DNA of 64,000 nucleotides from an uncultured Marinilabiliaceae bacterium (GTDB lineage Bacteria > Bacteroidota > Bacteroidia > Bacteroidales > Marinilabiliaceae), in contig CAYZUH010000016.1 of NCBI GenBank assembly GCA_964481855.1, positions 2,917-66,916 on the forward strand, written 5' to 3'. This document shows positions 37,618-60,518 of this stretch, one piece after another. How positions within the stretch are numbered: position 1 is the stretch's first letter; every line of letters starts with the position of its first letter. Under the pieces are notes generated by a model. The model saw only the letters and a program-made list of their open reading frames with translations, ran no database searches and was not told where the DNA came from. A program made the translations under genes and the position numbers.

Positions 37618-39303
37618 TCACTTACCGACAGGCACGTCCACCCCCGCGGGCGAGAGGCCGGGGCCGCCACCAGCCGTGTAGCCTCGGCTCTCGCCCGACG
37701 GCCAGGGGGAGACCCAAAAGGAGTAGAGGTCGCCGTCGGAGACATGGAAACGCAAGCACACCGCCCGCCCGGCAAGATTGCCTATCGACGCGCCGCGCCA
37801 CCGGACTTCGGCCATGGTGGAGTTGACGTCGGCCAGGGCCTCGCAGTCGGCAACGGAGAAGCCGTCCACCGGGCCGCCGTCACGGTCGAGAGCCTCCACG
37901 GCCAACCGCCGAGCCGAGGCGTTGACGAAGAGGCGGGAACCGTCGAAAGTGAGCGGCCCGGTGGTAAGCGTCCCCTCCCCCTCGGCGCGCATGGAGGCGA
38001 AACCGTCGCGGCGGAGCACGGCAAGACCTGTGGAGGCCTCCTCAATCCCGCGCGACAACAACCGACGCCCACTGACATAGAAATAGAGTTCGTCGCCGAC
38101 AACGATTGGAGAGCCCACGGCCGACTGCACGTTGCCGTCGTTCCACGCCGCGGCATCGCCCGCAACGGGCAGGAATGGCGTCATGTCCTCGCGGTGCCAC
38201 GAGTAGCCGTCGCGACTATATCCGACCATGACCTGGTTCCTCTTGATGGCCCCATCGGCGGCGCACACGTCGTTCTCCGGCCCCTGCCACACCGTAAAAA
38301 AGCCCAGCATGACGCTCTCGTAGGGCATGGCGTCGAGGTTGTAGATGCCAGGCGAGCCGTCGTCGTTGTCATATCGGGGGTGCGTCTGCTCGTCGGGCCA
38401 CGGGCCGAACCAAAAGTTCCGCAACGACGCTTCCGCCGCCCTGTTGCCATTGTCGGGGTTTGCGCCCTCGGCGTAGTCTCGCGCCCTTATGGTATAGGGG
38501 TCATCACCCCTCAGCCTCACATTGTGGCGCATGGACCATACCCACACATTGCGGAACGGATTCTTGAAGACCGTGGAGCGGTCGGCGACGGACTTGGAGG
38601 GCGCCCCCTCGTCGCGCCACCGCTTGCCGTCGGCCGACGTGAGGAAGACATACCTCCAATTGCCCTTGCCCCCCGCCACCTCGAACATCTTGAACCGCCT
38701 GGCGGCACTTGTCTCCTGCTTGTCGAGCCACACCGTGGAGGCGTCGCGGAGCGAACCTCTGCGGACAATGTTCGTGCCGTCGCCCACGTCGGGCTTGACC
38801 CACTGCACGCCGTCGACGGACTCGGCGTAGCAAGTGGCGTCGCCGCCGGCCATGTACCACATCTTGAACATCCCGTCGGCCTCGTCGAACCACACGCCGT
38901 CGGAGAAAGGCGCCGCGAAACCACCCCCATCGGCCCTGGCCTCCCACACCCGGTCGGGCCTCACGACGGGGTTTTGAGCATGATAGGCGGGATAGTGCCA
39001 TTGGCGACGAAGGGTTGTCTCCCGCACCAGAAAATCGTCGACAAAGAGCTGACGGCCCACATCGACTCTTATCGTCTCCGGCTTCGTCGTCAGGTAGCTG
39101 GGCGACATCCCGCTCCTTATGCAAGACGCATAGTCGCGACGCGGCGGCCACTGCCTCGGCAGGACGATGCCGTTGTAGAGGACGCCGCCATCCGCAACCG
39201 CCACGGTGTCGCCCGCACCGGGCGACATGGGATCGGGCGGCGCCGCATCCCCGCACGACAGAAAGAGCAAAGCGCCCGCCAAGGCCACAAGACGCACGGG
39301 CAT
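37618..39303 (-). CDS. Lipoprotein, five-bladed beta-propeller glycoside-hydrolase-like (paralog A), family unassigned
   Basis: Start trimmed to MPVRLVALAGALLFLSCG (lipobox). Contains NGIVLPRQWPP, VGRQLFVDDFL, NPVV..WE, PFSDGVWFDEADGMFKMWY, GYSRDGYSW, LYFYVSGR and LRRDGFASM, plus a C-terminal beta-sandwich-like region ending LYSFWVSPWPSGESRGYTAGGGPGLSPAGVDVP. Confidence 0.6.
   Translation of the reverse strand: MPVRLVALAGALLFLSCGDAAPPDPMSPGAGDTVAVADGGVLYNGIVLPRQWPPRRDYASCIRSGMSPSYLTTKPETIRVDVGRQLFVDDFLVRETTLRRQWHYPAYHAQNPVVRPDRVWEARADGGGFAAPFSDGVWFDEADGMFKMWYMAGGDATCYAESVDGVQWVKPDVGDGTNIVRRGSLRDASTVWLDKQETSAARRFKMFEVAGGKGNWRYVFLTSADGKRWRDEGAPSKSVADRSTVFKNPFRNVWVWSMRHNVRLRGDDPYTIRARDYAEGANPDNGNRAAEASLRNFWFGPWPDEQTHPRYDNDDGSPGIYNLDAMPYESVMLGFFTVWQGPENDVCAADGAIKRNQVMVGYSRDGYSWHREDMTPFLPVAGDAAAWNDGNVQSAVGSPIVVGDELYFYVSGRRLLSRGIEEASTGLAVLRRDGFASMRAEGEGTLTTGPLTFDGSRLFVNASARRLAVEALDRDGGPVDGFSVADCEALADVNSTMAEVRWRGASIGNLAGRAVCLRFHVSDGDLYSFWVSPWPSGESRGYTAGGGPGLSPAGVDVPVGK
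37631..38026. repeat. Roughly 92% identical segment shared with 40871-41266 (3' ends of paralogs A and C)
   Basis: By-eye alignment of 396 nt with no indels and about 33 mismatches. The remainder of the two genes is only about 50% identical at protein level. Confidence 0.8.
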
Positions 39304-39307
39304 GAGG

Positions 39308-40843
39308 CTAATTTTGGACTTGCGGCACGTCGCGCCCCGCGGGCGAGAGGCCCGGCCCGCCACCGGCGGTGTAGCCCCCGCTCTCGCCCGACGGCCACGG
39401 AGAGACCCAGAAAGAGTAGAGGTCGGCGTCGGAGAGGCGGAAACGGAGGCGCACGTTACTCCCCCTCAGCCCGGCAAGCCCCCGGCCTCCCCTCCACGTC
39501 ACCTCGCGCCTCGCGGTGTCCACCCTGCGGACGACGTGGCAGTCTGCCGCGCCAAAGCCAGGAACGGGCGCGCCGCCCTCGTCGAGCACCTCCACGGTGA
39601 GCCATCCGCGGGCGGCATCGACATTGACAAACAGATGGTCGCCGTCGACAACCATCGGGCGGCTCGTCGCAACGCCCTCCGCCGCCCCGGCACGGAGCGA
39701 GACGAACCCATCGCGGCGGAGCATGGCAAGCCCCGTGGCGAAGTTGGAGTCGTGGAGCGGCTTGCTGTTGTGGCGCCCGCTGACATAGAAATAGAGGCTG
39801 TCGCCAACAATGACGGGACAGCCGGCCACCGACTGCACATTGCCGGCGTTCCACGCGTCAAAATCCTCATCGACGGAGAGGAACGGCACCTTAAACTCCC
39901 GACGCCAATGGAACCCGTCGTCGGCCCACCCCACAAGCACCTCGTTGCGTTTCTGAATCTTAAGGCTGTCGCAAGCGTCGTTCTCCGGGCCCTGCCAAAT
40001 GGTGAAGTAGCCCAAGAGCGAACGCTCGTAGGGCATGGCCTCGTGGTTGTATATCTGCGGGCGTATGCCGGGGAAGAGCGGATGGCGCGGGTCGTCGTCC
40101 TCGGCGTTGAACCAGTAGCGGATGAACTTGTCGCTCCGGTTGTCGTAGACGCGGTGCGCGAGGCTGACAATCAGCTCGGGGTCGCCGCCCGCGAGATAGG
40201 CCCGCGAGCGGCGGAAGAGCTTGCCGTTGATGGTCTTGAGGCTGAGGACGTAGTGGCGGCGGAAAGGGTCGTAGTATGCCGCGCAACGGTCGTAGAGCTC
40301 GCCCGACAGGGCCCGGGTCTCGCCCCAATGGACTCCGTCGGGCGAGTAGCGCAGGTGCATGCTGACGGTGGCCCGGCGGTTGAACTGGACGCAGAACATC
40401 TTGTAGCGCCGCTCGGGGTCGGCCTCGAACTTGTCGAGAATGACGGAGACGCAATCGTGCTCGGCCGTATCGACAATGTTGGTGCCGGGGACGACATCGA
40501 GCGCGGGACGCGTCCACCGTTTGCCGTCGTCGCTCTCGGCGTAGCACGTCACCAGCCCGTCGGCCTTGCCCCCGCCCGCCGAGTACCACATCTTGAACTT
40601 CCGCGCCGCCTCGTCATACCACACGCCTCCAGAGAACGGGGCGGCATAGGGGTCGCCGTTGGCGTTGAACTCCCACGGCCTTTCGGCCTCCAGGACAGGG
40701 TTTTGCGCATAGTAGACCGGCGCATGGAATTGGCGCGAGACATTTCGGCAACTGTCGAAGTCGGAATAGGCCACAAGATGACGCCCCTGCTGCGCAAAAA
40801 CGGGCGAGGCCAGGAGGGCCGCCCAAAGAAGAGCCGGCCTCAT
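39308..40843 (-). CDS. Secreted five-bladed beta-propeller glycoside-hydrolase-like protein (paralog B, lacks the N-terminal NGI.LP.QWPP module)
   Basis: Start trimmed to MRPALLWAALLASPVFAQQ (SPase I type). Same core motifs (NPVLEAERPWE, PFSGGVWYDEAARKFKMWY, LRRDGFVSL, LYSFWVSPWPSGESGGYTAGGGPGLSPAG). The first 149 codons of the track ORF overlap gene C and are discarded. Its ATG overlaps the stop of C (ATGA). Confidence 0.6.
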   Translation of the reverse strand: MRPALLWAALLASPVFAQQGRHLVAYSDFDSCRNVSRQFHAPVYYAQNPVLEAERPWEFNANGDPYAAPFSGGVWYDEAARKFKMWYSAGGGKADGLVTCYAESDDGKRWTRPALDVVPGTNIVDTAEHDCVSVILDKFEADPERRYKMFCVQFNRRATVSMHLRYSPDGVHWGETRALSGELYDRCAAYYDPFRRHYVLSLKTINGKLFRRSRAYLAGGDPELIVSLAHRVYDNRSDKFIRYWFNAEDDDPRHPLFPGIRPQIYNHEAMPYERSLLGYFTIWQGPENDACDSLKIQKRNEVLVGWADDGFHWRREFKVPFLSVDEDFDAWNAGNVQSVAGCPVIVGDSLYFYVSGRHNSKPLHDSNFATGLAMLRRDGFVSLRAGAAEGVATSRPMVVDGDHLFVNVDAARGWLTVEVLDEGGAPVPGFGAADCHVVRRVDTARREVTWRGGRGLAGLRGSNVRLRFRLSDADLYSFWVSPWPSGESGGYTAGGGPGLSPAGRDVPQVQN

Positions 40844-42546
40844 CTCGACGTCTCGTTCTGCGCCCCGCAAGGCACGTCCACACCCGCGGGCGAGAGGCCG
40901 GGGCCGCCGCCCGCCGTGTATCCGCGGCTCTCGCCCGACGGCCAGGGGGAGACCCAAAAGGAATAGAGGTCGCCGTCGGAGACGTGGAAACGCAAGCGCA
41001 CCACACGCCCGGCAAGTTTGCCTATCGACGCGCCGCGCCACCGGACCTCGACCCTGGTGGAGTTGGCATCGGCCAGGGCCTCGCAGTCGGCAACGGAGAA
41101 GCCGTCCACCGGCCTGCCGTCGCGGTCGAGAGCCTCCACGGCCAACCGCCGCGCCGAGACGTTGACGAAGAGGTGGGAGCCGTCGAAAGTGAGCGGCTCG
41201 GTGGTGAGAACCCCATCGCCATCGGCGCGCATGGAGGCGAAACCGTCGCGGCGGAGCATGGCAAGCCCCGTGGAGGTGTAGCTGTCCCACATGACGGAAT
41301 TGAGGCGGCGGCCGCTACAGTAGAAGTAGAGCGAATCGCCGACAATGACAGGCACTCCCCCGACAGACTGCATATTGCCCCAGTTCCACGCCCCGTCTAT
41401 GGGGTTGTTGGCCAGGAACGGCTCGTGGCCGGGGCGCGAGAAGTGGAAGCCGTCGCGGCTGAAGCCAAGGCATATCTCGTTGCGCTTCTGGATTCCGAGG
41501 TCGGCGCAGACATTGTTCTCCGGCCCCTCCCAGACGGAATATTGCCCGACGAAGAGGCTCTCGTAGGCTATGGCGTCGAAGTTGTATATCCCGGGCTCCA
41601 CATCGGGGAACTGCGGGTGGCGCGGCTCCTCGTCGTCGGGCGTGAACCAGAAGACGACGTTCTTGTCGGGGACGCCCGCCCTGACGCGGTGAGCCATGGA
41701 GACGGCCGTCTCGGGGTCCGCCGCCTCAAGGTAGCCGCGCGAGCGCGACGAGATGGGCGTGGAGTGGCGCATGGAGAGGCACCAGACGCGCCGGAAAGGG
41801 TTGTAGAAGACCGACGACCTGTCATAGAGGTCGCCCGACTGCGCCACCCCCCCCGCCCAACGGATTCCGTCGGGCGAATATTTGAGGATGAACTGCCACC
41901 GTCGGTCTGACGGGCGCCGCTCGACGTTGAACATCTTGAACCTCTTGGCCGGGTCCGCCTCCTGCCTGTCGAGCCACACCGTGGCGGCGTCGCGGTTGCA
42001 GGTGTCGACGACAGCCGTGCCGGGCAAGACCCCGACAGCCGGCTTGCGCCACGTCTTGCCGTCGGGACTCTCGGCGTAGCAGGTGTAGAACGTCTGGCTA
42101 TCCTCCTTGTGTAGCGTCCCGGCCCCGGCTAGATACCACATCTTGAATTTGCCATCGGCCTCGTCGAACCACACGCCGTCGGAGAACGGGGCGGCATATG
42201 GGGCGCCCTCGGTGGTCTTCTCCCACTCCTCGGTAGGCTCCAGGACGGGGTTGGCGGCATAGAGGTCGGGCTTGTGGAAGACGCGCGCCATGTCGGTCCC
42301 GTCAATAAGGAAGTCGTCGACGAAGAGCTGGCGACCCACGTTGACGGGAATGACCTCGGGCTTCTTGTCGAGATAGGGCACGGGCATGGCCCGCCTCACG
42401 GCCGGGACGTCGTAGCGCGGGGGCCACTGGTCGGGGAGGCGTATGCCGTTGTGGAGGATGTTGCCGTCGTCCGTCGGCGCATTGCCGCAACCTGCCAGGA
42501 GGGCGGCTAGGCAGAGGAAGGAGACGGGGGCGTCGAAGTGTCGCAT
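40840..42546 (-). CDS. Lipoprotein, five-bladed beta-propeller glycoside-hydrolase-like (paralog C)
   Basis: ATG at 42546 gives MRHFDAPVSFLCLAALLAGC (lipobox); the track start at 42579 is TTG. Same motif set as A and D. Confidence 0.6.
   Translation of the reverse strand: MRHFDAPVSFLCLAALLAGCGNAPTDDGNILHNGIRLPDQWPPRYDVPAVRRAMPVPYLDKKPEVIPVNVGRQLFVDDFLIDGTDMARVFHKPDLYAANPVLEPTEEWEKTTEGAPYAAPFSDGVWFDEADGKFKMWYLAGAGTLHKEDSQTFYTCYAESPDGKTWRKPAVGVLPGTAVVDTCNRDAATVWLDRQEADPAKRFKMFNVERRPSDRRWQFILKYSPDGIRWAGGVAQSGDLYDRSSVFYNPFRRVWCLSMRHSTPISSRSRGYLEAADPETAVSMAHRVRAGVPDKNVVFWFTPDDEEPRHPQFPDVEPGIYNFDAIAYESLFVGQYSVWEGPENNVCADLGIQKRNEICLGFSRDGFHFSRPGHEPFLANNPIDGAWNWGNMQSVGGVPVIVGDSLYFYCSGRRLNSVMWDSYTSTGLAMLRRDGFASMRADGDGVLTTEPLTFDGSHLFVNVSARRLAVEALDRDGRPVDGFSVADCEALADANSTRVEVRWRGASIGKLAGRVVRLRFHVSDGDLYSFWVSPWPSGESRGYTAGGGPGLSPAGVDVPCGAQNETSR
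40871..41266. repeat. Roughly 92% identical segment shared with 37631-38026
   Basis: See the partner entry. The offset is exactly 3240 nt at both ends. Confidence 0.8.
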
Positions 42547-42663: not shown

Positions 42664-43746
42664 TCAAGGCGCGTCTTGCGAATCTTGCCGATTGAGTTCA
42701 AGGCGGAGAGCCTCAATCTCCTTTTGCTGACGGATGACGTGCAGGGTCAGCTCCTCAATCTTCTGCAGGAGGGCCTTGTTCATCTCGTGCTGCGAATAGC
42801 CGTCGGAGCGGACCTCGGCCTCGGACGGCACATCGGGGAGGTGGCCGTTCTCGCCCACGAATCGCTCCACCTCGTCGAGCGGCATGAGCTCGTAGCCGTC
42901 GGCGAAGACGAAATCGGACCATGAGTTGACGGGGGCGATGGCGTAGTCGGCCGAGAGTACCCCCTTGCGGCAGAAGACGTTATATTTCAGCTTGAGGGGG
43001 TCGCTTATGGCGGCGGCCCCATCGCGGTCGAAGCCCAGGAAGATGTTCTGGCCGTTGCCTATGTAGAGAGCCGTGCCGCTGTTGGCGCCAATCTCCAGCC
43101 CGTGGTTGGTGATTGTCCCCAGCCACGCGGCGGTGCGCCCCTCGTTGGTCCCCACGGAGGTCGTGATGTTGCTCTCGGTCACGGTGAGCGCCCCGCCCCT
43201 CTGCACGAAAGGCAACCGCGACTCGATGTGGCTGCCGGCCACCAGGAACGACGGGTTGTCGTCCGTCCCGCCGCCGCCATTGCCCCACAGGGCAATCCCC
43301 CCATAGGAGTTGAGGCGCAGCCACTTCTGCATCTGGCACGAGAGGATTACGTCGCCCTGCCGGCCGTAGCCGTAGTAGGAATCTATGCTGCCCGAAGCCG
43401 AGAGGTCTGTCATGACATATCGGTAGGCCACGAGCGAGCCGTGCGTCCCCGCCGCGGCGTCGGCAATGGCGTTGAGGTTGCCGTTGACGAAGCCGACGTT
43501 CTGCGACGCCGTGACCGGGTCGGTGGGCTTCCAGAGGAGCCAGCGCCCCTCGCTGTTGACAGCGCCCCGGAACTTGTCGGCTGTCGTGAACTGTATGCCG
43601 GTGAACGGGTAGGCCAGGGCCGAGTTGGCAATCCATTCGGGCTTGCCGGCCTGTCCGCTGCCGCGCCACATGTGGTAGTAGGTCTGGGCGGGGGCGGAGA
43701 GGGAACCAGCGCAAAGGCAAACAGACAAAAAGAATATCCTATTCAT
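42664..43746 (-). CDS. Secreted hypothetical protein with C-terminal coiled coil (tail-fibre-like C-terminal module)
   Basis: Preferred start MNRIFFLSVCLCAGSLSAPAQ at 43746; an ATG alternative lies at 43782. The C-terminus reads WSDFVFADGYELMPLDEVERFVGENGHLPDVPSEAEV...EMNKALLQKIEELTLHVIRQQKEIEALRLEL. I know this motif from Bacteroidota surface/tail-fibre-like hypothetical proteins; no family is assigned. Confidence 0.5.
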   Translation of the reverse strand: MNRIFFLSVCLCAGSLSAPAQTYYHMWRGSGQAGKPEWIANSALAYPFTGIQFTTADKFRGAVNSEGRWLLWKPTDPVTASQNVGFVNGNLNAIADAAAGTHGSLVAYRYVMTDLSASGSIDSYYGYGRQGDVILSCQMQKWLRLNSYGGIALWGNGGGGTDDNPSFLVAGSHIESRLPFVQRGGALTVTESNITTSVGTNEGRTAAWLGTITNHGLEIGANSGTALYIGNGQNIFLGFDRDGAAAISDPLKLKYNVFCRKGVLSADYAIAPVNSWSDFVFADGYELMPLDEVERFVGENGHLPDVPSEAEVRSDGYSQHEMNKALLQKIEELTLHVIRQQKEIEALRLELNRQDSQDAP

Positions 43747-43771
43747 AACTGAAAATATAATGCGCAACGTT

Positions 43772-46197
43772 CTACAATCCATCTGAAACTTCCACCGAGT
43801 CTATGCTCCCCATGAACCGTTGGCCACATTTCGAGTCGTACGCGCCAACAGTTATCTTGTCCATTCCCGCAACGAACGACGCGAACTGGAGGAATGCGAA
43901 AGCCCGAGCATTGGCCTTGTCGGCATCGGTCGGCACCTCGCGCTTCCAATCCCACAAGATTGCCTGAGGTTTCACCTCCTCAAATTTCAGTTCCGGGCAA
44001 CGAACCCTCAGCGCCGCCACTGCTTCCGCATCCTCGTCTTGACCACTCTTCAAGACTTCCAACGAGACCTCCACCTGCCGCCCCGCAAAAACTTTCCCTT
44101 GGGGCGGAGCAACACTCATCGAGGAAAACTCCACCCCATGCACCGTCATCTTCAAGAGAAACTCACCGTCGGACGTATAGTATAGCGCAATGTCGTTCTC
44201 GGCGTCACCGTGAAATCGCAGAATGGTCTGCAAGGCACCCCTGTACGTTTTGGGAGTGCAGAGACCACCTTAGCCACCCCCTGCATCAAGTTTGTCGGCT
44301 CGTAAGAATTCTGCGCAACCCGCCTGTTTGAAAACACCTCCGTATGGCACGGCATCTCCTTTGGGCTTGGCACAAATCTCCATCTCGTCCGCGGCTTATA
44401 GTCGTTGGCCGCCCTAGTGTCGAGAATATAGTCGGCCCCCGATGCCCTCTTGAATTGCAACCCATGGAACGTCGAGTTTCTAACCTTGGCCTCAAGGACC
44501 ACGGGCACTGCCGACAAATCGTCTTTCACCGATATGACTTCTCGTCTTGCCTCAGCCACCGACTTCATGTATTCAAACAGCAAGGCCTTGCCGTGGTGGT
44601 CTTTTCCGTCGAAGTTCCCAACGCTCTCGTAGTCGTCGGAGACCATCTCTGTGCCCCTCCGGCTGCTACCCATGCTCGCCGCCAAGAGGCCTCCAATGCC
44701 GCGCGGGCGTGAGGCGTCGTAGGCAAAAACAGACGCCACGACATAGCTGGAGAGGTCCGCGACCGAACGTCCGAGCGGGTCTTGTGTCACATCTGCGAGA
44801 ATCTTGGGCGCGAACTCCGCCCCATGGCGCAAGGCCTCGTAGAGCGACACCTTTAGCATATTGTCGATGCCGCCAGACGTCGGGATTGGCGACGTGAAAA
44901 CCGCCTCCCCGGCACCCGCTTTCAAGCCCGCCCATTTGCCACATTTGCCAAACGCCAACGACACTCCCGCAACTCGCCCTCCGACATGGCGCTGGTTCGA
45001 GGCCACGTAGTAGTACAGCAACTCGTTGGATGAAGACGAGTAGCGGCCGGCAGGAATGGGCTTCCCCATATTAATGCAACCGTGGTCGCCGCCTTGCGGG
45101 TCGGCTCCATTGTCAAGAAAGGGCGAACCCGGCTTGACGTAGAACCAATCTACGCCATTGTTCGAGAACGCCAACTCCGCCCTCTGCCTACTGTCCACGT
45201 CGGTTTCGGCCGTGGAGCCGAACATCGTGGCAATCCCCCACCAAACGTCGGTCTCAAAGCCGTCCATCTGAAAGGGCTGCAGGCTGTAGGGCTCCCACTG
45301 GCGCGTGGAACGGTCCAACGCAACGTCAACATCGAAATCGCCACTAGCCAACGCCGCGCCCAGGCGGGTCACGGTCTCGCGCCTGTAGCGAACCCGCGGG
45401 TCGCCCGACGAGAAAGGCAACACCTCCCCCGGCTTGAGCGACGAGCGTTTGGCATTGAGGCGCAAGAAAAGGTAGAAATCGCCATCGTGCTTCAGATAGC
45501 CCATATGGGTGTCGGCATTGATGAACTTGAAATTATATTCGAGCTGCGCCGACAGCCTGTCCTGCTTCATCTTGGAGAATCCGGTCAAAATGCCGTTGGA
45601 GTCGAACTCCCGCTTCATCTCATACCCGGCTACCAATGTGTTCTGCTTCTCCCTCTGCGGCAGATAGACCAACTTTACAGGCAGGCTGACGCCAAAATCC
45701 AAATCCTCATATATGCCGAGGCTCTCAATATCCACGGCAACGATATTGGTTGGCACGAGCCCCCGCCTGTAGGAGGGCGACAGCTTCAGCTCAACGTCTT
45801 TAGCCTGAGGGTCATACCAATAGAGCCCCGCATCGGGATGCCTCCACGTCGCGGGGTCTGACGTGTTGTTGGTGTAGACCATGACGCCGACCTTGGAATA
45901 GGGCACAGGAGAAGGGAAAAGAAAACAGGAGACGTAGAGCGAGAGACTCCCATCTGGGGCGACCATCACATTCGGCATTCCGTTTCCCAAATTCATCTCC
46001 CAAGGATATTTGTCGGGGTCGGGCGCAATTATGTTTTTGCCCCCATTGTGCTTTGTTGGCGGCACAACAAGCACATCGTCGGCCCCATAAGAGAACAGCG
46101 CAGGGTTTATGGCCGACAGATTTTGTTCTTGTTGCGCCAAGCCCCCAAGGGGCGGGAGCAGAGCGCAAACCGTAGCAAGTATACCACAACTCTTCAT
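43772..46197 (-). pseudogene. Frameshifted paralog of 51565-54036 (beta-propeller-like N-terminal part plus LamG-like C-terminal domain)
   Basis: The 683-aa ORF (44152-46203) and the 153-aa ORF (43772-44233) align end to end with the intact 823-aa paralog. The join ...PKRTGV|QTILRFHGD corresponds to ...QASTGVQTLLRFHGD. A 5-nt insertion (CCTTG on the coding strand, 44231-44235) breaks the frame. ATG at 46197. Confidence 0.75.
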
Positions 46198-46338
46198 CGC
46201 CACACTTCATTTTCCGACCCAAAAAACAGGAGATGGGACGCCCACCGCACCCCAAAGACGGCGGGCAACCAAAATTGGCGTAAGATGGGCGTCCGCATCT
46301 CCACACACTCACTTAACAAGCATCACACACTCAGCAAT

Positions 46339-51478: not shown

Positions 51479-51564
51479 TAAGACAAGATTGAGGAGGCCA
51501 GGAGACTCCGCCCATGCGCCATCCGCCCCGACAGGACTAGACAAGCACAGATAGTGCCCCAAAA

Positions 51565-54036
51565 CTATATGTCCCAAAAGTCACTATCTCCCTTTGGCAA
51601 AACATCCGCCACCTCGACATGGGATATTGTGCCGAGGAAGCGTTGAGAACACTTCTCGTCTCTCGCGCCGACTGAAATTTTGTCCATCCCTGGCACAAAC
51701 CCCGAGAAGCCGACATAGGCAAAAGCCCTCGCATTGGCCCTATCGGACGGAGTGACCTGCCCTTGCTGATGCTTCCACTGCCACAGGATGGCCTGTTGCT
51801 CGACCGCCTCGAAAGAAATCGACGGGCAGGACACCCGAAGCGTCACCACATCCTCCTCCGCCGCCTTGCCGTACTTCCTTGCCGACGTCTTCAAGGCCTC
51901 GACCGTCACCACCGTCTCCTTGCCAGCAAAGGTCCGCCCCTTGGGTGGAGATATTGCCACCCGGGCAAATTCCTGCCCATGCATCATGATGCGATATGAA
52001 AACGCGCCATCCGCCTCATAGCAGAGGCTAATGTTGTTGGCGTCGTCTCCATGGAACCTCAAAAGCGTCTGCACGCCTGTCGAAGCCTGGGGCGTGGAGG
52101 AAACAGCGACCGTCCCCCGAAGCGCGCTGGTCGGGACGAACAGATTCGGGCGGCGCAGCATGCCGGCGAAACTTATCGTCTTGCACGGATTCCGCGGTTC
52201 GGCGGGCGAGTAGGCCCAATAATGCCCGGATCTCGCGGCAGAGGCATTCTCGGTCTTTATGATTTTCCCCGTATGAGGCCCCCTCTCCACCATAAACCCA
52301 TAGAACGTGGCATTCTTCACTTTGGCAGACATCACGACGGGTATGTTCGTCATATCATCTTTCACAGATATGACCTTCGTGGGGTTCTTGTCCGAGAAAT
52401 CTTTCAAAAACTTGAAGAGGAGATTCTTATCGCACATGTCCACACCATCCACAACCGTCACAGACTCATATTGGTCGGAAGGTGTCGCAGTCCCTTCGGC
52501 ACTGCTTCCCATCGCGCCGGCCAAAGGCATTCCGAGGCCGTGCTCCTTTGTCGGGTCGTAGCTGTATAGAGACACGCTGACATAGCTGTCGAGCTGAGAG
52601 GTCTGCCGCCCCCTGGGGTCTTGCGTCACGTCGGCAAGAATCTGTGGCGCATAGCGCACATCGACACCGAGCGCCGCATAGAGCGAAAACGCGGCTAGAG
52701 TCTCGCCCTTCGCATCCGCCGAGTAGAACGTCTTCATGCCACCATTGGCCGCCAGCCCGGCCCACTTGCCATACTTTCCGACAGCCAACGATATGCCCGA
52801 ATTCCTATCTGAAACGTGGAGCTGGCGCGACGCGGCGTAGAAGTATAGCAAGTCGTAGGGATTGGCGGAATACCTCCCCGCCAGGATGGGCTTCGCCACG
52901 TTTATGCAACCGTGGTCGTCGCCATGCGGGTCCTCACCGTTGTCGATGAACGGAGTCCCGGGCTTGACGTAATACCAATCTGAAGCATTGTTGGAGAACG
53001 CCAACTCGGTCCGCTGCCTGTTGGCCACCGTCTCGTCGGCCCTGGTGCCAAATGCAGTCACCAGTCCCCACCAAACGTCGTCCTCAAACCCGTCTAGGCG
53101 AAAGGGTTGCATACTGTATGGCTCCCATTGGCGGGTAGACATATCGAGCGCCACGTCGATGTCGTAATTGCCGGACTCCAACCGCTCGCCAAGCTCTGTG
53201 ACCGTCTCGCGCCGGTATCGCATTCGGGGGTCGGGCGAGGGGAAAGGCAACCTTTCGCCCGGGAGCAAAGACGAGCGTTTCGCGTTGATGCGAGACACGA
53301 CATAGTATTTGCCGCCCTGCTTGAGGTAATTCATATGGGTGTCGGCATTTATGAAGCGGAACAGGTATTCATGCTGCGTCCGCACGCGGTCGGTTTTCAT
53401 ATCGGCAAAGCCGCTCAACACACCAAGGGGGGTAAAGTCCCGCCTCATCTCATAGCCCGCGATCAGATGGTTCTCCTTTTCGCGTTGGGGGAGGTATACC
53501 AACTTTATGGGCTTCTCGCCACCCGCATCAGTATCGTCAAAGATTCCGAGACTCTCGATGTCCACCGCGACAATGTTCGACGCCTGGCAACCTCCGCAAG
53601 GCGCGGGTGAAATCTTGTCGTCGGCACTCCGTCCGTGCGGATTGTACCAGTAAAGCCCGGCCTCCGGCCTTGTCCATTCTGCCAGACTGCTCGAATTGTT
53701 TGTATAGACGAATGCCCCAACCTTGGAGAAAGGGACGTCGGAATGGACAAGGAAACAGGACAAGTAGAGCGACAGATTGCCTTTGTTGTCCCTCAACACA
53801 TTGGGCATTCCATTCTCCAACTTGGCCTCCCAGGGATACGTCTTGGGATTGGGGCTGATTATGTTCCGCCCGCCATCGTACTTATCGGGCTGACGCACAT
53901 ACACATCGTCGGAGGCATATTGGAACAGGGCGGGATTAACGGCCGAAAATTTCTGCGGCTGTTGCGCCTCAGACATTCCCGGCGAGACAAGGTAGGCGCA
54001 AACCATCAAGACGCCCCTCCCTACACTAGCCCTCAT
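51565..54036 (-). CDS. Secreted hypothetical protein: beta-propeller-like N-terminal region plus C-terminal LamG/concanavalin-like domain, family unassigned
   Basis: 823 aa with a signal peptide. The central region ELAFSNNASDWYYVKPGTPFIDNG...LLYFYAASRQ resembles the propeller paralogs. The C-terminal LRFHGDDANNISLCY...ARAFAYVGFSGFVPGMDKISVGAR...RFLGTISHVEVAD is LamG-like. Its ATG overlaps the stop of gene D (ATGA). Confidence 0.6.
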   Translation of the reverse strand: MRASVGRGVLMVCAYLVSPGMSEAQQPQKFSAVNPALFQYASDDVYVRQPDKYDGGRNIISPNPKTYPWEAKLENGMPNVLRDNKGNLSLYLSCFLVHSDVPFSKVGAFVYTNNSSSLAEWTRPEAGLYWYNPHGRSADDKISPAPCGGCQASNIVAVDIESLGIFDDTDAGGEKPIKLVYLPQREKENHLIAGYEMRRDFTPLGVLSGFADMKTDRVRTQHEYLFRFINADTHMNYLKQGGKYYVVSRINAKRSSLLPGERLPFPSPDPRMRYRRETVTELGERLESGNYDIDVALDMSTRQWEPYSMQPFRLDGFEDDVWWGLVTAFGTRADETVANRQRTELAFSNNASDWYYVKPGTPFIDNGEDPHGDDHGCINVAKPILAGRYSANPYDLLYFYAASRQLHVSDRNSGISLAVGKYGKWAGLAANGGMKTFYSADAKGETLAAFSLYAALGVDVRYAPQILADVTQDPRGRQTSQLDSYVSVSLYSYDPTKEHGLGMPLAGAMGSSAEGTATPSDQYESVTVVDGVDMCDKNLLFKFLKDFSDKNPTKVISVKDDMTNIPVVMSAKVKNATFYGFMVERGPHTGKIIKTENASAARSGHYWAYSPAEPRNPCKTISFAGMLRRPNLFVPTSALRGTVAVSSTPQASTGVQTLLRFHGDDANNISLCYEADGAFSYRIMMHGQEFARVAISPPKGRTFAGKETVVTVEALKTSARKYGKAAEEDVVTLRVSCPSISFEAVEQQAILWQWKHQQGQVTPSDRANARAFAYVGFSGFVPGMDKISVGARDEKCSQRFLGTISHVEVADVLPKGDSDFWDI

Positions 54037-55739
54037 GCTCCCCCTGTTGGCACGTCCAACCCCGTCTCGCTAAGCCCAGGCCCGCCCCCGGCCGTGTAGC
54101 CTCGGCTCTCGCCTGAGGCCCACGGTGAGACCCAGAAAGAGTAGAGGTCGCCGTCTGTAAGGTAGAATCGGAAAGCGACACCCTCCCCGCGAAGAGACGA
54201 CAAGTCCTTACGTGTCTCCCATTCTATCCTCGCCTTGGTAGAATCGCCCATGAAGGGGCGGCAGTCGTCCTTGCCAAACCCGGGGATGGGCTCGCCGTCG
54301 GCGTCTAGGACCTCGACGAGCAGGCTCCCCCTCGCCTCCGCGTTCACAAACAGATGGTCGCCGTCGAACCGCACAACCTCGGTCTGCAAATACGCGCCCC
54401 CGCTCCCCTCAGACGCCCTCATCGAGACAAAACCGTCGCGGCGCAGCGTGGCAAGACCGGTAGCCGTCCCCGCATCCCACCACAGCCCGTCGGGATTCCG
54501 CCCCGTGGAGTATATGTACAGCGAATCGCCTACAATCAGAGGGACTCCGTTTATCGACTGCATATTCCCCATGTTCCAAGCCCCCGGCGTCTCGTCCACA
54601 CCCCAAAAAGGCTCATGGCTAGGACGCGAAAAGTGGAAACCGTCTCGGCTGTAGCCCAACATCAGCTCATTGCGTTTGGGAATCATGAGCCCCCTGGCAA
54701 TGTGGTTCTCCGGTCCCTGCCACTGGCTATAGAAGCCGAGAATTATGCTCTCGTAGGCAATGGCATCGAAGTTGTAGATCCCGGGGGCGACATCAGGGTA
54801 TTTTTCGTGCCGCTTCTCCTTGTCGTCGGGGGTGAACCAAAAGACGACGTGCTTGTCGGCTACACCCTCGCGCAGGCGGTGCGCAAGGCTCACGGCCTCT
54901 TCGGGGTCGTCGTGTTCCAGGTAGCTGCGCGACCGCCACGATACCTTGTCGTGATGCCTCATGCTCAGCACCCATTTGTCGGTGAACGGATTATAAAAAG
55001 CCGTCGAACGGTCGGCAATGGCGCCCGACTGCGCCACGGCGTCGGACCAATGCACTCCGTCCGCGCTGTATTTCAAGACATATTGCCACTGGATGTAGTC
55101 GGGCCTATACTCGACGTTGAAGAACTTGTATCGCTTTGCGGGGTCGGTCTCCCGCTTGTCAAGCCAGACGGTCGAGGCGTCGCGGTTGGCCGTGTCGCAG
55201 ACATTGGTTCCCGGCACGATGCCAAGGTCCGCCTTGACCCATCTCTTGCCGTCGTCCGATTCGGCATAGCACGTATAGAGGCTGTGCTTCTGCCTGCTGA
55301 CCTTGCCGGCCCCCGCCAAATACCACATCTTGAATTTGCCCTCGCGCTCGTCATACCAAATGCCGTCGGAGAACGGCCCGGCGTAGGGGAACCCCTCTGG
55401 CGTCAGCTCCCACTCCCTGTCGGCTTTTAGAATCGGATTCGCCGCATATTGCTTGGGCGAGTTGTAGACGCGTAGCATATTCGTCTCCTTGATGAGATAA
55501 TCGTCGACAAAGAGCTGCCGGCCAACGTTGATGGGGATGACCTGCGGCTTATCCTCCAAATAGGGGACAGGCATCTCCTGCGGCTTCTGCGGCTCGACGT
55601 AGCGCGGAGGCCACTGTCCTGGCAGGCGGATGCCGTTGTGCAGAACCCGCCCCGTCTCATCCGCCGCGTCTCCTTGCGCGCATCCGGCCATGAGGCATGA
55701 CAGGACGACAAGGGCGGCGGGAATTATACTTCTATTCAT
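54033..55739 (-). CDS. Lipoprotein, five-bladed beta-propeller glycoside-hydrolase-like (paralog D)
   Basis: ATG at 55739 gives MNRSIIPAALVVLSCLMAGC; the track start at 55784 is GTG. Contains NGIRLPGQWPP, VGRQLFVDDYLI, NPILKADREWE, PFSDGIWYDEREGKFKMWY, GYSRDGFHF, LRRDGFVSM and LYSFWVSPWASGESRGYTAGGGPGLSETG. Confidence 0.6.
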   Translation of the reverse strand: MNRSIIPAALVVLSCLMAGCAQGDAADETGRVLHNGIRLPGQWPPRYVEPQKPQEMPVPYLEDKPQVIPINVGRQLFVDDYLIKETNMLRVYNSPKQYAANPILKADREWELTPEGFPYAGPFSDGIWYDEREGKFKMWYLAGAGKVSRQKHSLYTCYAESDDGKRWVKADLGIVPGTNVCDTANRDASTVWLDKRETDPAKRYKFFNVEYRPDYIQWQYVLKYSADGVHWSDAVAQSGAIADRSTAFYNPFTDKWVLSMRHHDKVSWRSRSYLEHDDPEEAVSLAHRLREGVADKHVVFWFTPDDKEKRHEKYPDVAPGIYNFDAIAYESIILGFYSQWQGPENHIARGLMIPKRNELMLGYSRDGFHFSRPSHEPFWGVDETPGAWNMGNMQSINGVPLIVGDSLYIYSTGRNPDGLWWDAGTATGLATLRRDGFVSMRASEGSGGAYLQTEVVRFDGDHLFVNAEARGSLLVEVLDADGEPIPGFGKDDCRPFMGDSTKARIEWETRKDLSSLRGEGVAFRFYLTDGDLYSFWVSPWASGESRGYTAGGGPGLSETGLDVPTGGA

Positions 55740-55799: not shown

Positions 55800-57461
55800 T
55801 TAATTCCACCCGGGGTTGTTGGCCGTTATATATGGGTTGCCCTCCACCTCGTCGATGGGAATCGGCAACCACTCGTTCTTTCCCTCTTGGAAGCCGAGGT
55901 ATGCGGAAATGTTGTACTGCTTGAAATTAGGGTCTTCCGCCTCCAACTTCTTGAACCTAGCCGCCAGCTCGCCCCACCGGAGCAAGTCGAAGAAACGGTG
56001 CCCCTCGCCGGTCAACTCTAGAATCCTCTCTTTCTTAATGTCCTCAATATTCACGCTCTGCAAGGCGGGCATATTGACGCTCTTCCTGGCCCTCACCTTG
56101 TTGACCGCCTCCATGGCGGAGAGAGACCGTTGCGTCGCCCCCGACACAACGCATTCGGCATACATGAGGAGGACGTCCGCAAAACGGATATAGGGGTAGT
56201 TGAGCCCGTTGGCTCTCAGGTTTCCGAACCACATGCCGTTGCCCGGATTCTTACTCGGGAGAGTCCAATCCATGCCCTTTCGGCACGCGCTCTTATATTT
56301 GCCGGCTTGCGCATTGACCGCGGCAAAGCCATCATCACCATAGTAATCCGCCCAAGTCATGCCGTCGACGACCGTCACGGCGTCACCCTCCTTGGCATTA
56401 ATCTGGGGGGCCTTGTCGTCGAAAATGAGCGTGCCGAACATACGGCTGTCGGTGTGCCCCTCGGCGTCTTTGCTATCCACAAAAGCCTGCCACACCCAAT
56501 CGTGGCAAACATGCGCATTGTTGTTCGCGAGCCGCGAGGGGGGCTGAGTCCCTCGGGGGTCTCTCCAGACCCCGCTCGTGGTAAGTCCGGGGTTGAAGCC
56601 GGTGTTGACGGCATCGCCCATGAACTGCAGCTCAAAAATCGACTCGTCGTTGTTCTCCGTCGCGACGCAAAAAAGGTCGCCATATTCATCCACGATGCGG
56701 TAGTCCCCGTGCCTCCCGCTTATCACCTCGTCAAAACATTGGGCCGCCTCGTTGTAGTAGTTCTGCGCCGTACCATATTTTGTCTCGATTCCGGTGCGAT
56801 AGAGATATACTTTCCCGAGCAAAGCCGCCGCGCTGCCACTCGTGACGCGCCCCAGGTCGTCCTCCGTCCAATAGCCTTTTGGCGGCAACAGCTCCTTGGC
56901 CCTCTGGAGGTCGGCGACGATGAAGTCCCAAGCCTCGTCGGGCGACGCTTGCGGGCGATAGTTCTTGGCAGAGGTGGGGAACTCGCTCATCAGCGGGATA
57001 TTGCGCCAATTGACCAGGAGGAAGAAATGCGAGAAAGCCCGGAGGAAATAGGCCTCGCCAAGATAGGCGTTCTTCAACTGCGCGTCTTCCATGTCCACGC
57101 CGGGGATGCACTCAATCATTTGGCACGCTTGCGAGGCGGCCGTGTAGAAAAGCTGGAACGGTTGCACTAGAGTGTACCACGACGTGGTCAGAGCCGTGCA
57201 ATACTGCCCCGGCACCCCATAGTCCGTACGGTCGCTCTCTTCGTCGCCCCTGTTGACGAGCAGACGGATTCCCGCCGCCCCCATGGCGCGGGGCGTGGTC
57301 ACGTAGGAGTAAATCCCCAAGACGCCCTGATTGAGCGTCTTCTGTGATGTATAGAACTGCGCGACGTCCATCTGGTTCGGATTGACCGCAAGGTCGTCAA
57401 AAACATCTTGGCAAGACGCCATCGACAGCGTGGCCGCGACGGCCGCGAAAATTCTTTTCAT
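55800..57461 (-). CDS. RagB/SusD-family nutrient-binding outer-membrane lipoprotein (module 2)
   Basis: 553 aa with lipobox MASC. IKKERILELTGEGHRFFDLLRWG. Roughly 45-50% identical by eye to the module 1 SusD. Confidence 0.9.
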   Translation of the reverse strand: MKRIFAAVAATLSMASCQDVFDDLAVNPNQMDVAQFYTSQKTLNQGVLGIYSYVTTPRAMGAAGIRLLVNRGDEESDRTDYGVPGQYCTALTTSWYTLVQPFQLFYTAASQACQMIECIPGVDMEDAQLKNAYLGEAYFLRAFSHFFLLVNWRNIPLMSEFPTSAKNYRPQASPDEAWDFIVADLQRAKELLPPKGYWTEDDLGRVTSGSAAALLGKVYLYRTGIETKYGTAQNYYNEAAQCFDEVISGRHGDYRIVDEYGDLFCVATENNDESIFELQFMGDAVNTGFNPGLTTSGVWRDPRGTQPPSRLANNNAHVCHDWVWQAFVDSKDAEGHTDSRMFGTLIFDDKAPQINAKEGDAVTVVDGMTWADYYGDDGFAAVNAQAGKYKSACRKGMDWTLPSKNPGNGMWFGNLRANGLNYPYIRFADVLLMYAECVVSGATQRSLSAMEAVNKVRARKSVNMPALQSVNIEDIKKERILELTGEGHRFFDLLRWGELAARFKKLEAEDPNFKQYNISAYLGFQEGKNEWLPIPIDEVEGNPYITANNPGWN

Positions 57462-57474
57462 GACGATATAGAAA

Positions 57475-60400
57475 CTATAGTTTCACACTGAGCCCGACAT
57501 TGAAAGTCCGGCTGTTTACTGTTGGGGCGTAGTTCTGGAGTCCGTCCAGGCCACGGTCGAAAAGCGTGTTGCTGCTCACTTCGGGGTCGTAGAGCGAGTA
57601 GTCCGTCAGCGTGAAAAGATTGGTGACCCCGACGTAGAGACGCGCGGACTGCACAAACCCCATTTGAGGGAACGAGTAGCCTAGCTGCAGGTTCTTGCAA
57701 CGGAAGTAGGAGCCATCCTCGACATAGAAAGAACTCGGAAGCGCATTGCCACCATTGCGGTTGTCGGTTTTTGCTATGGGAAGGGCCGCGGAACTGTTGG
57801 AGGCCGTCCAGGAGCCGCTCATGGCATCGCGCAACGTGTTGGTGTTGTAGTCGAAATAGAGGAAATACTTTCCCGCCGCAAAGATGTCGTTTCCGTGCGT
57901 CCCCTGGAAAAAGGCCGTCAAGTCCCAACTCTTCCACCCAAGGTTGACGTTGATGCCATAAGTGAAATCGGGAATGGGGTTGCCAATCACCTGCTTGTCG
58001 TCATCGGAGACCTCGCCCGGGGCTTTTGCCAATCCGTCCGCCCCCAGGAACATGAAGTCGCCAGTCTCGGGATTCACACCCATCACCTTGTAGCCCCAAA
58101 ACGAGCCAATGGGCAACCCCGCCATGGTGATGGACGGACGGTCGTTGAACTTGTCACTGAGCATATTGCCGCGGATGGGCTGGACCCCATCGCCAAGAGC
58201 CTTGACCTCATTGTCCAAGAAAGAGATGTTGCCGCTGAGGTCAACAGACCAGTCAGACCACGCGCGACGATAGCCGACGGTGAACTCCCACCCCTTGTTT
58301 TCGACAGACGCCGTGTTGTAGTACGGGACGTCGCCGTCGTTGATGATGATGGTCTGCCCCGACGACGGCAGCGGCTCCAGCGGGGCCAGCAAGTCCCGAT
58401 TCTCTTTCGAGAACCATTCGACCTCGAAAGTGAGCGAATTGTCTATGAAGCCGAACTCCACGCCGACGTTCTTAGACACGGCGGTCTCCCACGTGAGGTC
58501 TGGCTGCGCCAGGCGCGTGACGTAGCCGTTCTGACGGCTCCCTCCCCCGCTTCCAAAAATTGTGGGAACGGGGCCGTAGGCAAGATTGAGGAACGAATAG
58601 GGGTCTATGAAATTGGCGCCCATCTCCCCGTAGCTGGCGCGAACCTTTAGCCTCTGCATCCACGACAGGTTGAAAAAGCTCTCATTGTGCAAATTCCACC
58701 CCACACTGACGGACGGGAACCACCCGACACGGTAGCCCGACGCGAACTTTGAGCTCTTGTCGCTACGGATGCTGGCAGAGAGCAGGTACCGGCTCTTGAA
58801 AGCATAGTTCAGGCGGCCGAGGAAAGAGAACAGGGCGGCATTATTCTCCGCGGAGGTTATGGGCCCCTCGCCGTTGAAAGTGTTCACTGCGGCAGAACCG
58901 AGGTCGGCAACGCCCGAGCCGATTGCCATTGTCCGGTGAAACTCCCTCATCCAGCTCGTCCCGACAAGCACGTCGAACTCATGCCCGGCAAAATCGCCAT
59001 TGAATGTCAGCAGATTGTCTATCGTATAGTCGAACTCCTCGCCCCGGCTTTCGGACAGGCTCGTATAAGGCTGCGAAAAGCGGGAGTCCGGCGTCCCCCC
59101 GGCGTCCCAATAGGAGGCGTATTCGGGAGTGTGCGTATAGCCGTGGCTGTTCAGATAGCTCCCCGCCAAATTGAGCTTATATTTAAGCCCGGCAACCAGG
59201 TCGACAACGAGCCCCGCGCTGCCAACAATGTCGGTCTTGCGCGTCCATGCGTCGCGGTTGTAGATTAAAGCCAACGGGTTGGTGATGTCCGTTTTTAGGA
59301 GCGAATAGTCAAGCTCTTGGGGGGTGGATACATATCGCCCTCGGCTGTCTCTGACGGGAATGGTCGGTATTTGCCCAATGCGCCCTTGCGCAGACACCTC
59401 CTTCTTCTTGGTGTGAGCCAAAGACACGTTCTCAGAAATGTGGAACCTGCCGATGTCGAACGTGCTGTTGATTCTGGCATTATACTTCTCGTAGTCCGTC
59501 TCGATTACGATACCCTCCTGCTTGGTGTAGCCAAGACTGGCACTGAAAGTGTTGCTCTGCCCCCCTCCCGAAAGGCTCGCGTTGAGGCTCCACATTGGCG
59601 CCCCGCGGTAGTACAAGTCCTGCCAGTCTTGACTGTAGCCGGGGTTGGTCGGCGATACATTCTGCTCCGCACGCTCATAGCTGGGGCTGTTGTCCGCCAC
59701 CATGTTTGCGAACTGGCGCCACTCATCGGCGTTCATGAAATCCAGCTTCTTGGAGATTTTCTGCCACGACCAATTGCCGCTGACCTCCACATTGGTGCGC
59801 CCGCTCTTTCCGCTCTTGGTAGTGACCAAGACCACCCCGTTTGCGGCACGCGACCCATATATTGCGGCGGCCGAGCCGTCTTTCAGAATCTCGATGGAGG
59901 CGATGTCGTTTGGGTTGACTGAGTTCAACCCATTGAGGCCGACGGCCCCGTCGATGATGTAGAGCGGCTCGGTGCTGCCAAACGACCCGGCACCGCGAAC
60001 AACTATGCTAATATCGCCGCCGGCTTCCGCCCCGTTTTGTAAAACCTCAACACCGGGAGCGCGCCCCTGAAGAGCGGAGGCTACATTCGACGTCACCGTC
60101 TTCTGAATCTCCTCGGTTGGAACGGTAACGACAGAAGCCGTGACACTCGACTTTTTCTGCACGCCATATCCCACCACCACCACGTCGTTGAGCTCCTCGG
60201 CGTGGGAGACGAGGTAGATGCTTAGACTCTCTCTAGATTGCGCGGGGGGGGGGGGGTAAATTCTTGCGTGGCATAGCCAATAAAGGAGAATACGAGGGTC
60301 CGCCCCGGCTCTGCCAGCGTGAGGGAGAAGTTGCCGTCGGCGTCGGTAATCGTCCCGGTCTGCGTCCCCTTGACCAGGACCGAGACGCCGGGGATTGGCT

Positions 60401-60518
60401 GCCTGTCGGCCGAGTCGAAGACCCGTCCCGCCACCACGCCCTGCGCCGCGGCGGCGAGCGGCGCGAGCAGCAGGGCCACCAGGAGGCAGAGCCTGAGAGC
60501 TGAAAACTTCTTGTTCAT
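57475..60518 (-). CDS. SusC/RagA-family TonB-dependent transporter (module 2), reading frame broken at an identical C13 tract
   Basis: Same 5' cassette as module 1 (identical 134-aa track ORF at 60222-60626, real ATG at 60518). The 902-aa ORF (57475-60183) continues in another frame. 14 or 11 C would give a 1014-aa protein. Confidence 0.85.
60244..60256. repeat. Homopolymer G13 (C13 on the coding strand) inside susC of module 2
   Basis: Counted directly: 60244-60250 is seven g and 60251-60256 is six g. Confidence 0.95.

Follow-up and report, generated by a model that had tools for sequence, protein, structure and literature searches.

The 64,000-nucleotide stretch of contig CAYZUH010000016.1 from an uncultured Marinilabiliaceae bacterium that is analyzed here (the window) carries on its minus strand, from position 60518 down to 37618, a locus with two adjacent susC/susD pairs and seven packed downstream cargo genes, whose products are glycosidase-like in fold and match no characterized family of carbohydrate-active enzymes (CAZymes). 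That this is a polysaccharide utilization locus (PUL) with uncharacterized propeller families is close to certain. On balance, we take it to be a sialoglycan-harvesting locus that relies on these propeller enzymes, a reading in which the substrate, the chemistry, and the cellular location are what we infer. The substrate is likely a glycan carrying sialic acid or a related nonulosonic acid, because orthologous susC–susD–propeller blocks of Prevotella-like and Bacteroides loci neighbor nanL, nanE, nanT, yhcH, and nanM. Glycosidase chemistry is plausible for the propellers, and the cargo proteins may well represent a new enzyme class that harvests glycans bearing sialic acid.

The propeller family and its LamG neighbors

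The seven cargo genes encode four propeller proteins (A–D), a large protein labeled LamG, a frameshifted paralogue of LamG, and a 372-amino-acid (aa) protein. None of the products matched Pfam at E≤0.01, and only noise appeared at E≤10; NCBIfam gave nothing meaningful, its one match (E=0.12) being to a signal-peptide model. Propeller D, LamG, and the 372-aa protein also had no match as single queries against PDB sequences or in PHROGs, and the searchable literature yielded no account of these families or of such an operon. An earlier reading of the window made from the sequence alone (the sequence-only reading) had found in the cargo no signature of a characterized CAZy family, and these searches bear it out. 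Propeller D and LamG are real genes rather than chance open reading frames (ORFs), because both have many homologues. For propeller D, a word-indexed search returned over 3,800 homologues, all of them devoid of Pfam domains, and an exhaustive search at E≤1e-3 returned 7,495 representative clusters. Among the clusters listed, more than 100 share about 71 % identity with propeller D, and the sole named one of these is a Prevotella protein. The family extends to Planctomycetota, Armatimonadota, and other phyla, and the name "glycosyl hydrolase family 32" is loosely attached to a few of its records; no conserved neighborhood was seen on the Planctomycetota and other long contigs that carry distant homologues. 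Giant homologues fuse the propeller to generic domains (Laminin_G_3, Ig-like, cadherin-like). In one metagenomic homologue of 941 aa (P0399) an N-terminal Kelch domain is fused to the propeller; the best NCBIfam match of the Kelch part is N-acetylneuraminate epimerase (NanM/YjhT; E=8e-21, far below the cut-off), which may serve as a weak Rosetta-stone hint to sialic acid.

The four window propellers are paralogues of about 510–570 aa. Three are lipoproteins, namely A (37618–39303, lipobox FLSC), C (40840–42546, LLAGC), and D (54033–55739, LMAGC), whereas B (39308–40843, 511 aa) has an ordinary type-I signal peptide with no lipobox and lacks the N-terminal extension of the other three. Propellers C and D are 62 % identical, and B is 52–55 % identical to A, C, and D. 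A and C share 85 % identity in the C-terminal sandwich (37618–38070 versus 40840–41320) but only 53 % in the propeller part; the same is seen in the nearest relative, L001 (see below), a pattern that suggests old gene conversion between the paralogues. Across 72 family sequences, 58 alignment columns are invariant, many of them Arg, Lys, Asp, or Glu, and all four window propellers keep them. The motifs NPVL..WE, SRDGF, and LY.Y.SGR, picked out in the sequence-only reading, are indeed present and correspond to conserved columns of the family alignment.

An AlphaFold2 (AF2) model of propeller D built on the 72-sequence alignment (predicted local distance difference test (pLDDT) 90.2, predicted template modeling score (pTM) 0.90) has about 20 strands in five blades (residues ~83–433) behind the N-terminal extension, followed by a β-sandwich (438–538). 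Structure prediction followed by Foldseek, the check proposed in the sequence-only reading, gave fold-level matches to glycoside hydrolase (GH) families GH32, GH43, and GH130, in agreement with its assignment of the propellers to the five-bladed superfamily with a C-terminal jelly-roll or sandwich domain. Against the PDB, the matches comprised the GH32 endo-levanase BT1760 and its levan-utilisome copy, GH43, GH130, GH62, and an N-acetylgalactosamine (GalNAc) deacetylase, with E-values of 1e-10 to 1e-7 and identities of 8–16 %. The best per-domain fit was the GH130 structure 7fip (TMt 0.68, root-mean-square deviation 5.2 Å, 15 % identity), with TMt values of 0.63–0.68 for 7fip and 9gph. Profile searches of the PDB pointed the same way. 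A diverse profile of 52 sequences (A2) matched the GH130 1,2-β-oligomannan phosphorylase 9fj8 best (E=1.1e-6), followed by the deacetylase 6n1a (E=1.4e-5), by GH130 7fip at 2e-4, and by 4onz, a putative glycoside hydrolase, at 2.5e-4. With a profile of lower diversity (A3) the ranking was the same and the scores were weaker (E=7e-4 for GH130). In the HMMER alignment only, which is reliable as far as blade 3, Asp187 of the propeller motif RDxxTVWLD, an invariant residue, is matched to the "LEDPR" Asp of 9fj8. In GH130 enzymes this Asp, preceded by a Glu or Tyr, is the invariant putative catalytic acid, namely Asp142 in BT3780, Asp131 in BF0772, and Asp104 in UhgbMP (PMC4599007).

GH130 is therefore the family with the best profile match, the best per-domain structural match, and a putative acid aligned with the invariant Asp. 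The differences are substantial: identity is 15–16 %, the window propellers other than B are longer by about 80 aa at the N-terminus, all carry a C-terminal sandwich of about 130 aa, they are secreted proteins or lipoproteins, their genomic context features nan rather than mannan genes, and no Pfam GH130 match appears even at E≤10. The endo-levanase BT1760 heads the whole-chain Foldseek list (8aa2_E and 6r3r, E ~2e-10) and is likewise a propeller-plus-sandwich lipoprotein encoded beside susD, but identity is 8–10 %, the TM score is 0.33–0.37, and there is no Pfam GH32 match. The WMNDPNG block of GH32, already reported missing in the sequence-only reading, is absent, and only an "RD(A/S)" motif resembles RDP. 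The sialidase-type families GH33 and GH181 share with the window propellers a propeller fold, a lectin-like extra domain, Asp-box-like S-x-DG-x-x-W motifs, and a sialic acid context, but they are six-bladed, as is Amuc_1547 (GH181), whereas the strand count of the model predicts five blades for the window propellers. These have no FRIP motif and no Pfam or NCBIfam sialidase match. In the Foldseek list for propeller D the GH33 structure 1wcq stands at rank 45, and among the 50 matches listed there is no entry for Amuc_1547, whose presence in the library is unconfirmed. Membership of GH33 or GH181 was rejected, since neither family is among the top structural or sequence matches. We read propellers A–D as a separate branch of the GH130/GH32/GH43 superfamily that belongs to none of these families, because the family models fail, the GH32 nucleophile block is absent, and the architecture differs. 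This separateness is judged by Pfam and NCBIfam, so the propellers may fall in an existing CAZy family that has no such model.

The LamG protein (51565–54036, 823 aa) has a signal peptide and a confident AF2 model (pLDDT 91.3, pTM 0.90) whose strand pattern comprises a β-propeller (residues ~30–440), a β-sandwich, and a C-terminal jelly-roll-like sandwich (640–823 mainly β). Foldseek returned only architecture-level matches of low TM score (0.2–0.3), to GH43 β-xylosidases, GH32, and trypanosomal trans-sialidases; over the whole chain, the matched proteins have lectin-like sandwiches. Because no Laminin_G or ConA-like model in Pfam matches at E≤10, the name LamG, which the sequence-only reading had introduced, describes the predicted fold and not a sequence family. 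Profiles of the LamG and 372-aa families had no match in the PDB. The LamG family comprises 107 full-length clusters, those that are named and located all being from Bacteroidales, and many of its members bear a type IX secretion system (T9SS) sorting domain. No relationship between the LamG and propeller families is claimed, as their profile–profile probability is 9.7 %.

The 372-aa protein (ORF 42664–43782; the probable start at 43746 would give about 360 aa) is a secreted protein with an ordinary signal peptide. Its N-terminal region is variable, and its C-terminal module, which has a coiled coil at its end, is conserved. The earlier description of it as a coiled-coil protein fits this tail, and to that can be added that it is no stray: in 14 of 17 loci recovered with a LamG profile, an orthologue lies directly after the LamG gene or within 3 kb of it, and these partners are about 310–400 aa long. 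Its gene is a constant downstream companion of LamG, and in 16 family members scanned with Pfam only noise appeared.

Sialic acid genes beside related loci

The LamG profile was run against one genome per species and yielded 17 Bacteroidales loci (numbered from L001), to which further related loci (L018–L020 and L024–L026) were added. The recurrent order in the 17 is susC–susD–propeller(s)–LamG–372-aa gene–propeller(s). In Bacteroides, the sialic acid pathway consists of NanL, NanE, NanT, and RokA, and YhcH (NanQ) and NanM are the sialic acid anomerase and mutarotase, which act on free sialic acid. Genes of this nan type occur in the retrieved flanks of 10–12 of about 21 distinct related loci. 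On the metagenomic contigs L018–L020, genes for a dihydrodipicolinate synthase (DHDPS)-family protein (NanL), a GlcNAc_2-epimerase, a major facilitator superfamily (MFS) transporter, and a DUF386 protein (YhcH) are followed by those for SusC, SusD, and three propellers, all on one strand and with spacers of 35–149 nt; the SusC, SusD, and propellers are 63–71 % identical to window SusC2, SusD2, C, D, and B. In a Prevotella-like locus, the first propeller is 63 % identical to C, the D orthologue 71 %, and the third propeller 71 % identical to B. L025 has the order DUF386–MFS–DHDPS–epimerase–SusC–SusD–three propellers–NANM, the Pfam NANM gene standing directly after the third propeller, and in L024 a DUF386 gene follows LamG and its partner.

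An MFS transporter, an N-acylglucosamine 2-epimerase (AGE), a NanL-like lyase, or a ROK regulator is found in L003, L005, L007, L008, L009, L011, and L013. Counted by neighbor, MFS transporters occur in six loci, AGE-type epimerases in five, NanL-like DHDPS-family lyases in four, ROK regulators in three (L009, L011, and L013), creatininase-family proteins in three, GH33-like neuraminidases in two, SGNH esterases resembling sialate O-acetylesterases in two, and a hexosaminidase-like protein in one. L011 combines a GH33-like neuraminidase, the hexosaminidase-like protein, and such SGNH esterases. Annotation of the neighbor genes brought up no plant-glycan CAZymes such as mannanases or fructanases. 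The sequence-only reading had put the locus forward as its best candidate for a system with neither a described substrate nor a described enzyme family; the second half stands, in that the families are uncurated, while the first is too strong, since the nan genes point to a substrate class.

In joining SusC/SusD to NanL, NanE, NanT, ROK, YhcH, and NanM, the related loci resemble the NanOU/nanLET clusters of Bacteroides fragilis and Tannerella forsythia. They differ in that the SusCD pair is always followed by three or four propellers, which are not described for NanOU clusters, and in that most have no GH33 sialidase in the examined flanks; the window itself is without nan genes. We regard the system as distinct from NanOU because SusD2 is no orthologue of NanU. 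The NanU structure 4l7t was considered as a counterpart of SusD2 and rejected, since it ranks only 26th of 29 matches (E=8.4e-8), far behind generic SusD homologues. According to a review, many uncharacterized susCD pairs occur in Bacteroidetes sialocatabolic clusters (PMC10017367).

Several observations weigh against a sialoglycan substrate or against glycosidase chemistry. No nan gene lies within reach of the locus in the window or in L001, and about half of the related loci have none in their retrieved flanks. In L026 (2347–14125), the block stands instead under an extracytoplasmic function (ECF) sigma/FecR anti-sigma pair with no nan genes, so the same enzyme set is tied to at least two regulatory schemes; the SusC of L026 has an STN domain, and an ECF-sigma/FecR pair is also present in L016. 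SusD2 lacks orthology to the sialic acid binder NanU, and both window transporters are frameshifted in the sequence as assembled. The propeller family is huge and occurs in Planctomycetota, Armatimonadota, and elsewhere without a nan context, so specificity must differ within it. The homology to GH130 is remote and leans partly on recurrent blade motifs, with the second profile reaching only E=7e-4, and the propeller-fold GalNAc deacetylase 6n1a scores almost as high in profile and Foldseek searches, so that the chemistry of the propellers could differ from glycoside hydrolysis.

These points bear on three other accounts of what the proteins do. The locus could be an ordinary PUL for dietary or fungal glycans, with propellers that are divergent β-mannosidases, fructanases, or arabinofuranosidases of GH130, GH32, or GH43 type. 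The nan genes would then be mere neighbors, with sialylated N-glycans or mixed host glycans going to adjacent regulons. The best structural and profile matches (GH32 endo-levanase, GH43, and the GH130 β-mannoside enzymes) fit this account, the PDB matches of SusD2 include the levan SusD homologues 5t3r and 6z8i, and GH130 enzymes take part in breakdown of the N-glycan core (Man-GlcNAc). We nevertheless consider it rather unlikely: the propellers match no Pfam GH32, GH43, or GH130 model at E≤10 and lack WMNDPNG, the annotated neighbors include no plant-glycan CAZyme, and in L018 and L025 the nan genes belong to the same co-directional block with short spacers, which in L025 extends to a NanM gene after the last propeller.

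A sialic acid substrate would be retained if the propellers were non-glycosidase enzymes, such as de-N- or de-O-acetylases or hydrolases of anhydro or unsaturated sialic acids, that ready unusual forms for the Nan pathway. The F. plautii GalNAc deacetylase 6n1a, second in the A2 profile search and also present in the Foldseek list, is the obvious precedent, the many invariant Arg, Lys, Asp, and Glu residues would suit a small acidic substrate, and operons are shared with nanM and yhcH. However, the 6n1a match consists mostly of the repeated S-x-DG-x-x-W blade motif, the position of the GH130 catalytic Asp is conserved, and three or four paralogues with C-terminal sandwiches beside a SusCD importer look like glycan processing, so we judge this account unlikely. 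Still less can be said for the propellers and LamG being non-catalytic glycan-binding or structural components of the SusCD surface complex, which we think very improbable. Their genes do lie directly downstream of susD, the usual spot for surface glycan-binding lipoproteins, three of the propellers are lipoproteins, and LamG has lectin-like β-sandwich regions; yet 58 of the columns are invariant over 72 sequences, with charged residues and an Asp aligned to the GH130 acid, members of the family are frequent in non-PUL contexts and in phyla other than Bacteroidota, and the fusions to separate binding-type domains (Laminin_G_3, Ig-like) suggest that the propeller itself is catalytic.

For the sialoglycan-harvesting locus that we favor, the following mechanism can be proposed. 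LamG and its coiled-coil partner are probably located outside the cell and make the first contact or first cut, because homologues of LamG carry the T9SS signal; as surface proteins they would bind or cut the glycan, and SusCD would take up the (sialylated) fragments. Asp187 would lie at the catalytic center of the propellers, which would free the acidic sugar or trim around it, and Nan enzymes encoded elsewhere in the genome would catabolize it. A more specific proposal, which we put forward tentatively and consider possible rather than probable, is that propellers A–D and their orthologues form a new glycoside hydrolase family in which a five-bladed, GH130-like propeller releases sialic or nonulosonic acid, and that LamG with its coiled-coil partner forms a second new family serving as the surface component. 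Such a propeller would add to the existing structural solutions for sialidase-type chemistry, which are the six-bladed GH33, GH34, GH83, GH58, and GH181 enzymes and the TIM-barrel GH156, and abundant gut Bacteroidales would be using it in operons without a classical sialidase.

Release and capture of sialic acid shape gut competition, inflammation, and pathogen expansion. Close relatives of the susCD–three-propeller block are common in Prevotella-like gut metagenome contigs, and if this block encodes harvesting enzymes, CAZyme surveys that count only GH33 miss part of the sialoglycan-degrading capacity. With about 7,500 clusters at 50 % identity, the propeller family is very large and at present lacks a curated model. 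The set is also tractable, with four paralogues, one large protein, and one predicted catalytic Asp. Prevotella is reported to be a leading consumer of labeled N-acetylneuraminic acid (Neu5Ac) in piglet cecal fermentations (review PMC10017367).

Organization of the locus and its additional cassette

Reading along the minus strand from 60518, module 2 (susC2–susD2–propeller D–LamG) precedes module 1 (susC1–susD1–frameshifted LamG paralogue–372-aa gene–propellers C, B, and A), which ends at 37618. Inspection of the ORFs and junctions reproduced the gene order and coordinates of the sequence-only reading, together with the ATGA overlaps at D/LamG and C/B and the 4-nt gap between B and A (TAG-CCTC-ATG). 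Its identification of a SusC/SusD locus was likewise upheld by Pfam for both pairs. Both SusC proteins have Plug, TonB barrel, and CarbopepD_reg domains, and the SusD proteins match SusD_RagB and SusD-like_3. susC2 (57475–60518) encodes a TonB-dependent transporter and is split by a frameshift into an N-terminal piece (60222–60518) with a signal peptide and the CarbopepD_reg domain (CarbopepD_reg_2, E=2.5e-19) and a body (57475–60183) with Plug and TonB barrel. susD2 (55800–57461) encodes a lipoprotein (MASC|QDVFDD) with matches to SusD_RagB (5e-39) and SusD-like_3 (5e-15), and susD1 (46339–48054) another (AAGC|DDTFDE; SusD_RagB, 1.2e-40). SusC2 shares 95 % identity with the L001 SusC, which is intact at 1056 aa, and SusD2 is 92 % identical to the L001 SusD and 68 % identical to the Prevotella-like SusD of a nan-linked locus. 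Within the window, SusD1 and SusD2 are 49 % identical.

susC1 (48068–51084) and susC2 share their first ~355 nt exactly, as part of a 752-bp direct repeat (50730–51481 and 60164–60915). Each copy starts at a 16-bp perfect hairpin (ΔG −33.9 kcal/mol). The promoter region behind it is AT-rich, the leader measures some 200 nt and includes runs of G8 and C7, and the susC 5′ end comes last, so that the two transcription units have identical promoters and leaders. Outside the repeat, the SusC1 body is only 49 % identical to SusC2, from which it follows that susC1 is chimeric; its body is closest to the SusC proteins of L005, L006, L013, and L015 (58–67 %). Within the CarbopepD_reg domain, both genes contain a poly-C13 tract (minus strand; 50810–50822 and 60244–60256) that leaves them one base out of frame, and a tract of C14 or C11 would restore the frame (...QEFTPPPPAQSRESLSIYLVSHAEELNDVVVVGYG). 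The susC of L001 has C10ACC at this position and is in frame, and the tract is missing in nine other orthologous susC genes. Assembly or polishing, a miscalled homopolymer, or real slipped-strand switching could each account for the identical C13 in both copies, and the frameshift itself may stem from phase variation, a sequencing error, or pseudogenization. Because both susC genes are frameshifted, the locus may be switched off, phase-variable, or mis-sequenced.

The LamG paralogue of module 1 (43772–46203) is 54 % identical to the intact copy over 651 aa and consists of two pieces (44152–46203 and 43772–44233) separated by a single frameshift at ~44225–44235. Its context, ACAGGGGTGCCTTGCAGACC, contains no long homopolymer, and the 153 codons past the frameshift are intact in the other frame; to judge from this context, the gene looks like a true pseudogene. 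That the whole locus is a decaying, non-functional remnant in this genome, an account that concerns its state and not its nature and draws on the frameshifts in both susC genes and this paralogue, is the most improbable of the alternatives, as neither susD gene nor any of the five other cargo genes is disrupted and all are 83–95 % identical to those of L001, whose susC is intact, and as susC is off by a single base, in a 13-base homopolymer within an exact repeat, a typical site of sequencing or polishing error or of slippage.

L001 itself is a metagenome-assembled genome labeled Marinilabiliaceae, with 83–95 % protein identity to the window, and it carries a single operon between the same flanks, in the order acyltransferase–susC–susD–D–LamG–372-aa gene–C–B–A–Rpn-like gene–susD0–susC0. 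In the window, susC1–susD1–LamG1, 49–54 % identical to module 2, sits between LamG2 and the 372-aa gene, and it is identified as an additional cassette because L001 has one operon without it. The tandem modules of the sequence-only reading are thus correct insofar as two SusCD sets are present, but the arrangement is not ancestral, and the front of module 1 is a divergent cassette. That this cassette is divergent and yet has an exact copy of the 752-bp 5′ region points to insertion with gene conversion and not to simple tandem duplication; an ancestral single operon would have acquired a second, divergent susC–susD–LamG cassette. In six other loci (L005, L006, L008, L014, L015, and L017), an extra lipoprotein of 517–609 aa is encoded between propeller genes (for example at L008:17880–19433); its matches to BamB-like β-propellers are weak, and neither the window nor L001 has it.

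Elsewhere the window contains housekeeping genes, including those for valyl-tRNA synthetase, the Rnf complex, pyruvate:ferredoxin oxidoreductase (PFOR), Ddl, and RluD. No regulator or sialic acid gene was found in the scanned ORFs, which comprised most of the large ORFs of the 64-kb window, and there is no ordinary CAZyme, sulfatase, esterase, or lyase in the window, in line with what the sequence-only reading had stated for the locus. Pattern hits for sigma-70 promoters and terminators were near chance level, and such patterns are ill suited to promoters of Bacteroidota. The spacer between the 372-aa gene and propeller C contains, antisense to the operon, a plus-strand match to the Acido-Lenti-1 RNA (Rfam RF01687; 42607–42652) with two hairpins and a score of 47.3 bits against a gathering score of 37; this element may not be part of the system. 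The plus strand carries a third susC/susD pair (32190–36542), within a feature region of 32190–37541. In the domain scan its SusC matched the barrel only and not Plug. It is followed by a gene for a 317-aa protein that has no Pfam match and whose N-terminus we take to resemble Rpn/YhgA-type nuclease-transposase proteins; this third susC and susD and the 317-aa gene also flank the operon in L001.

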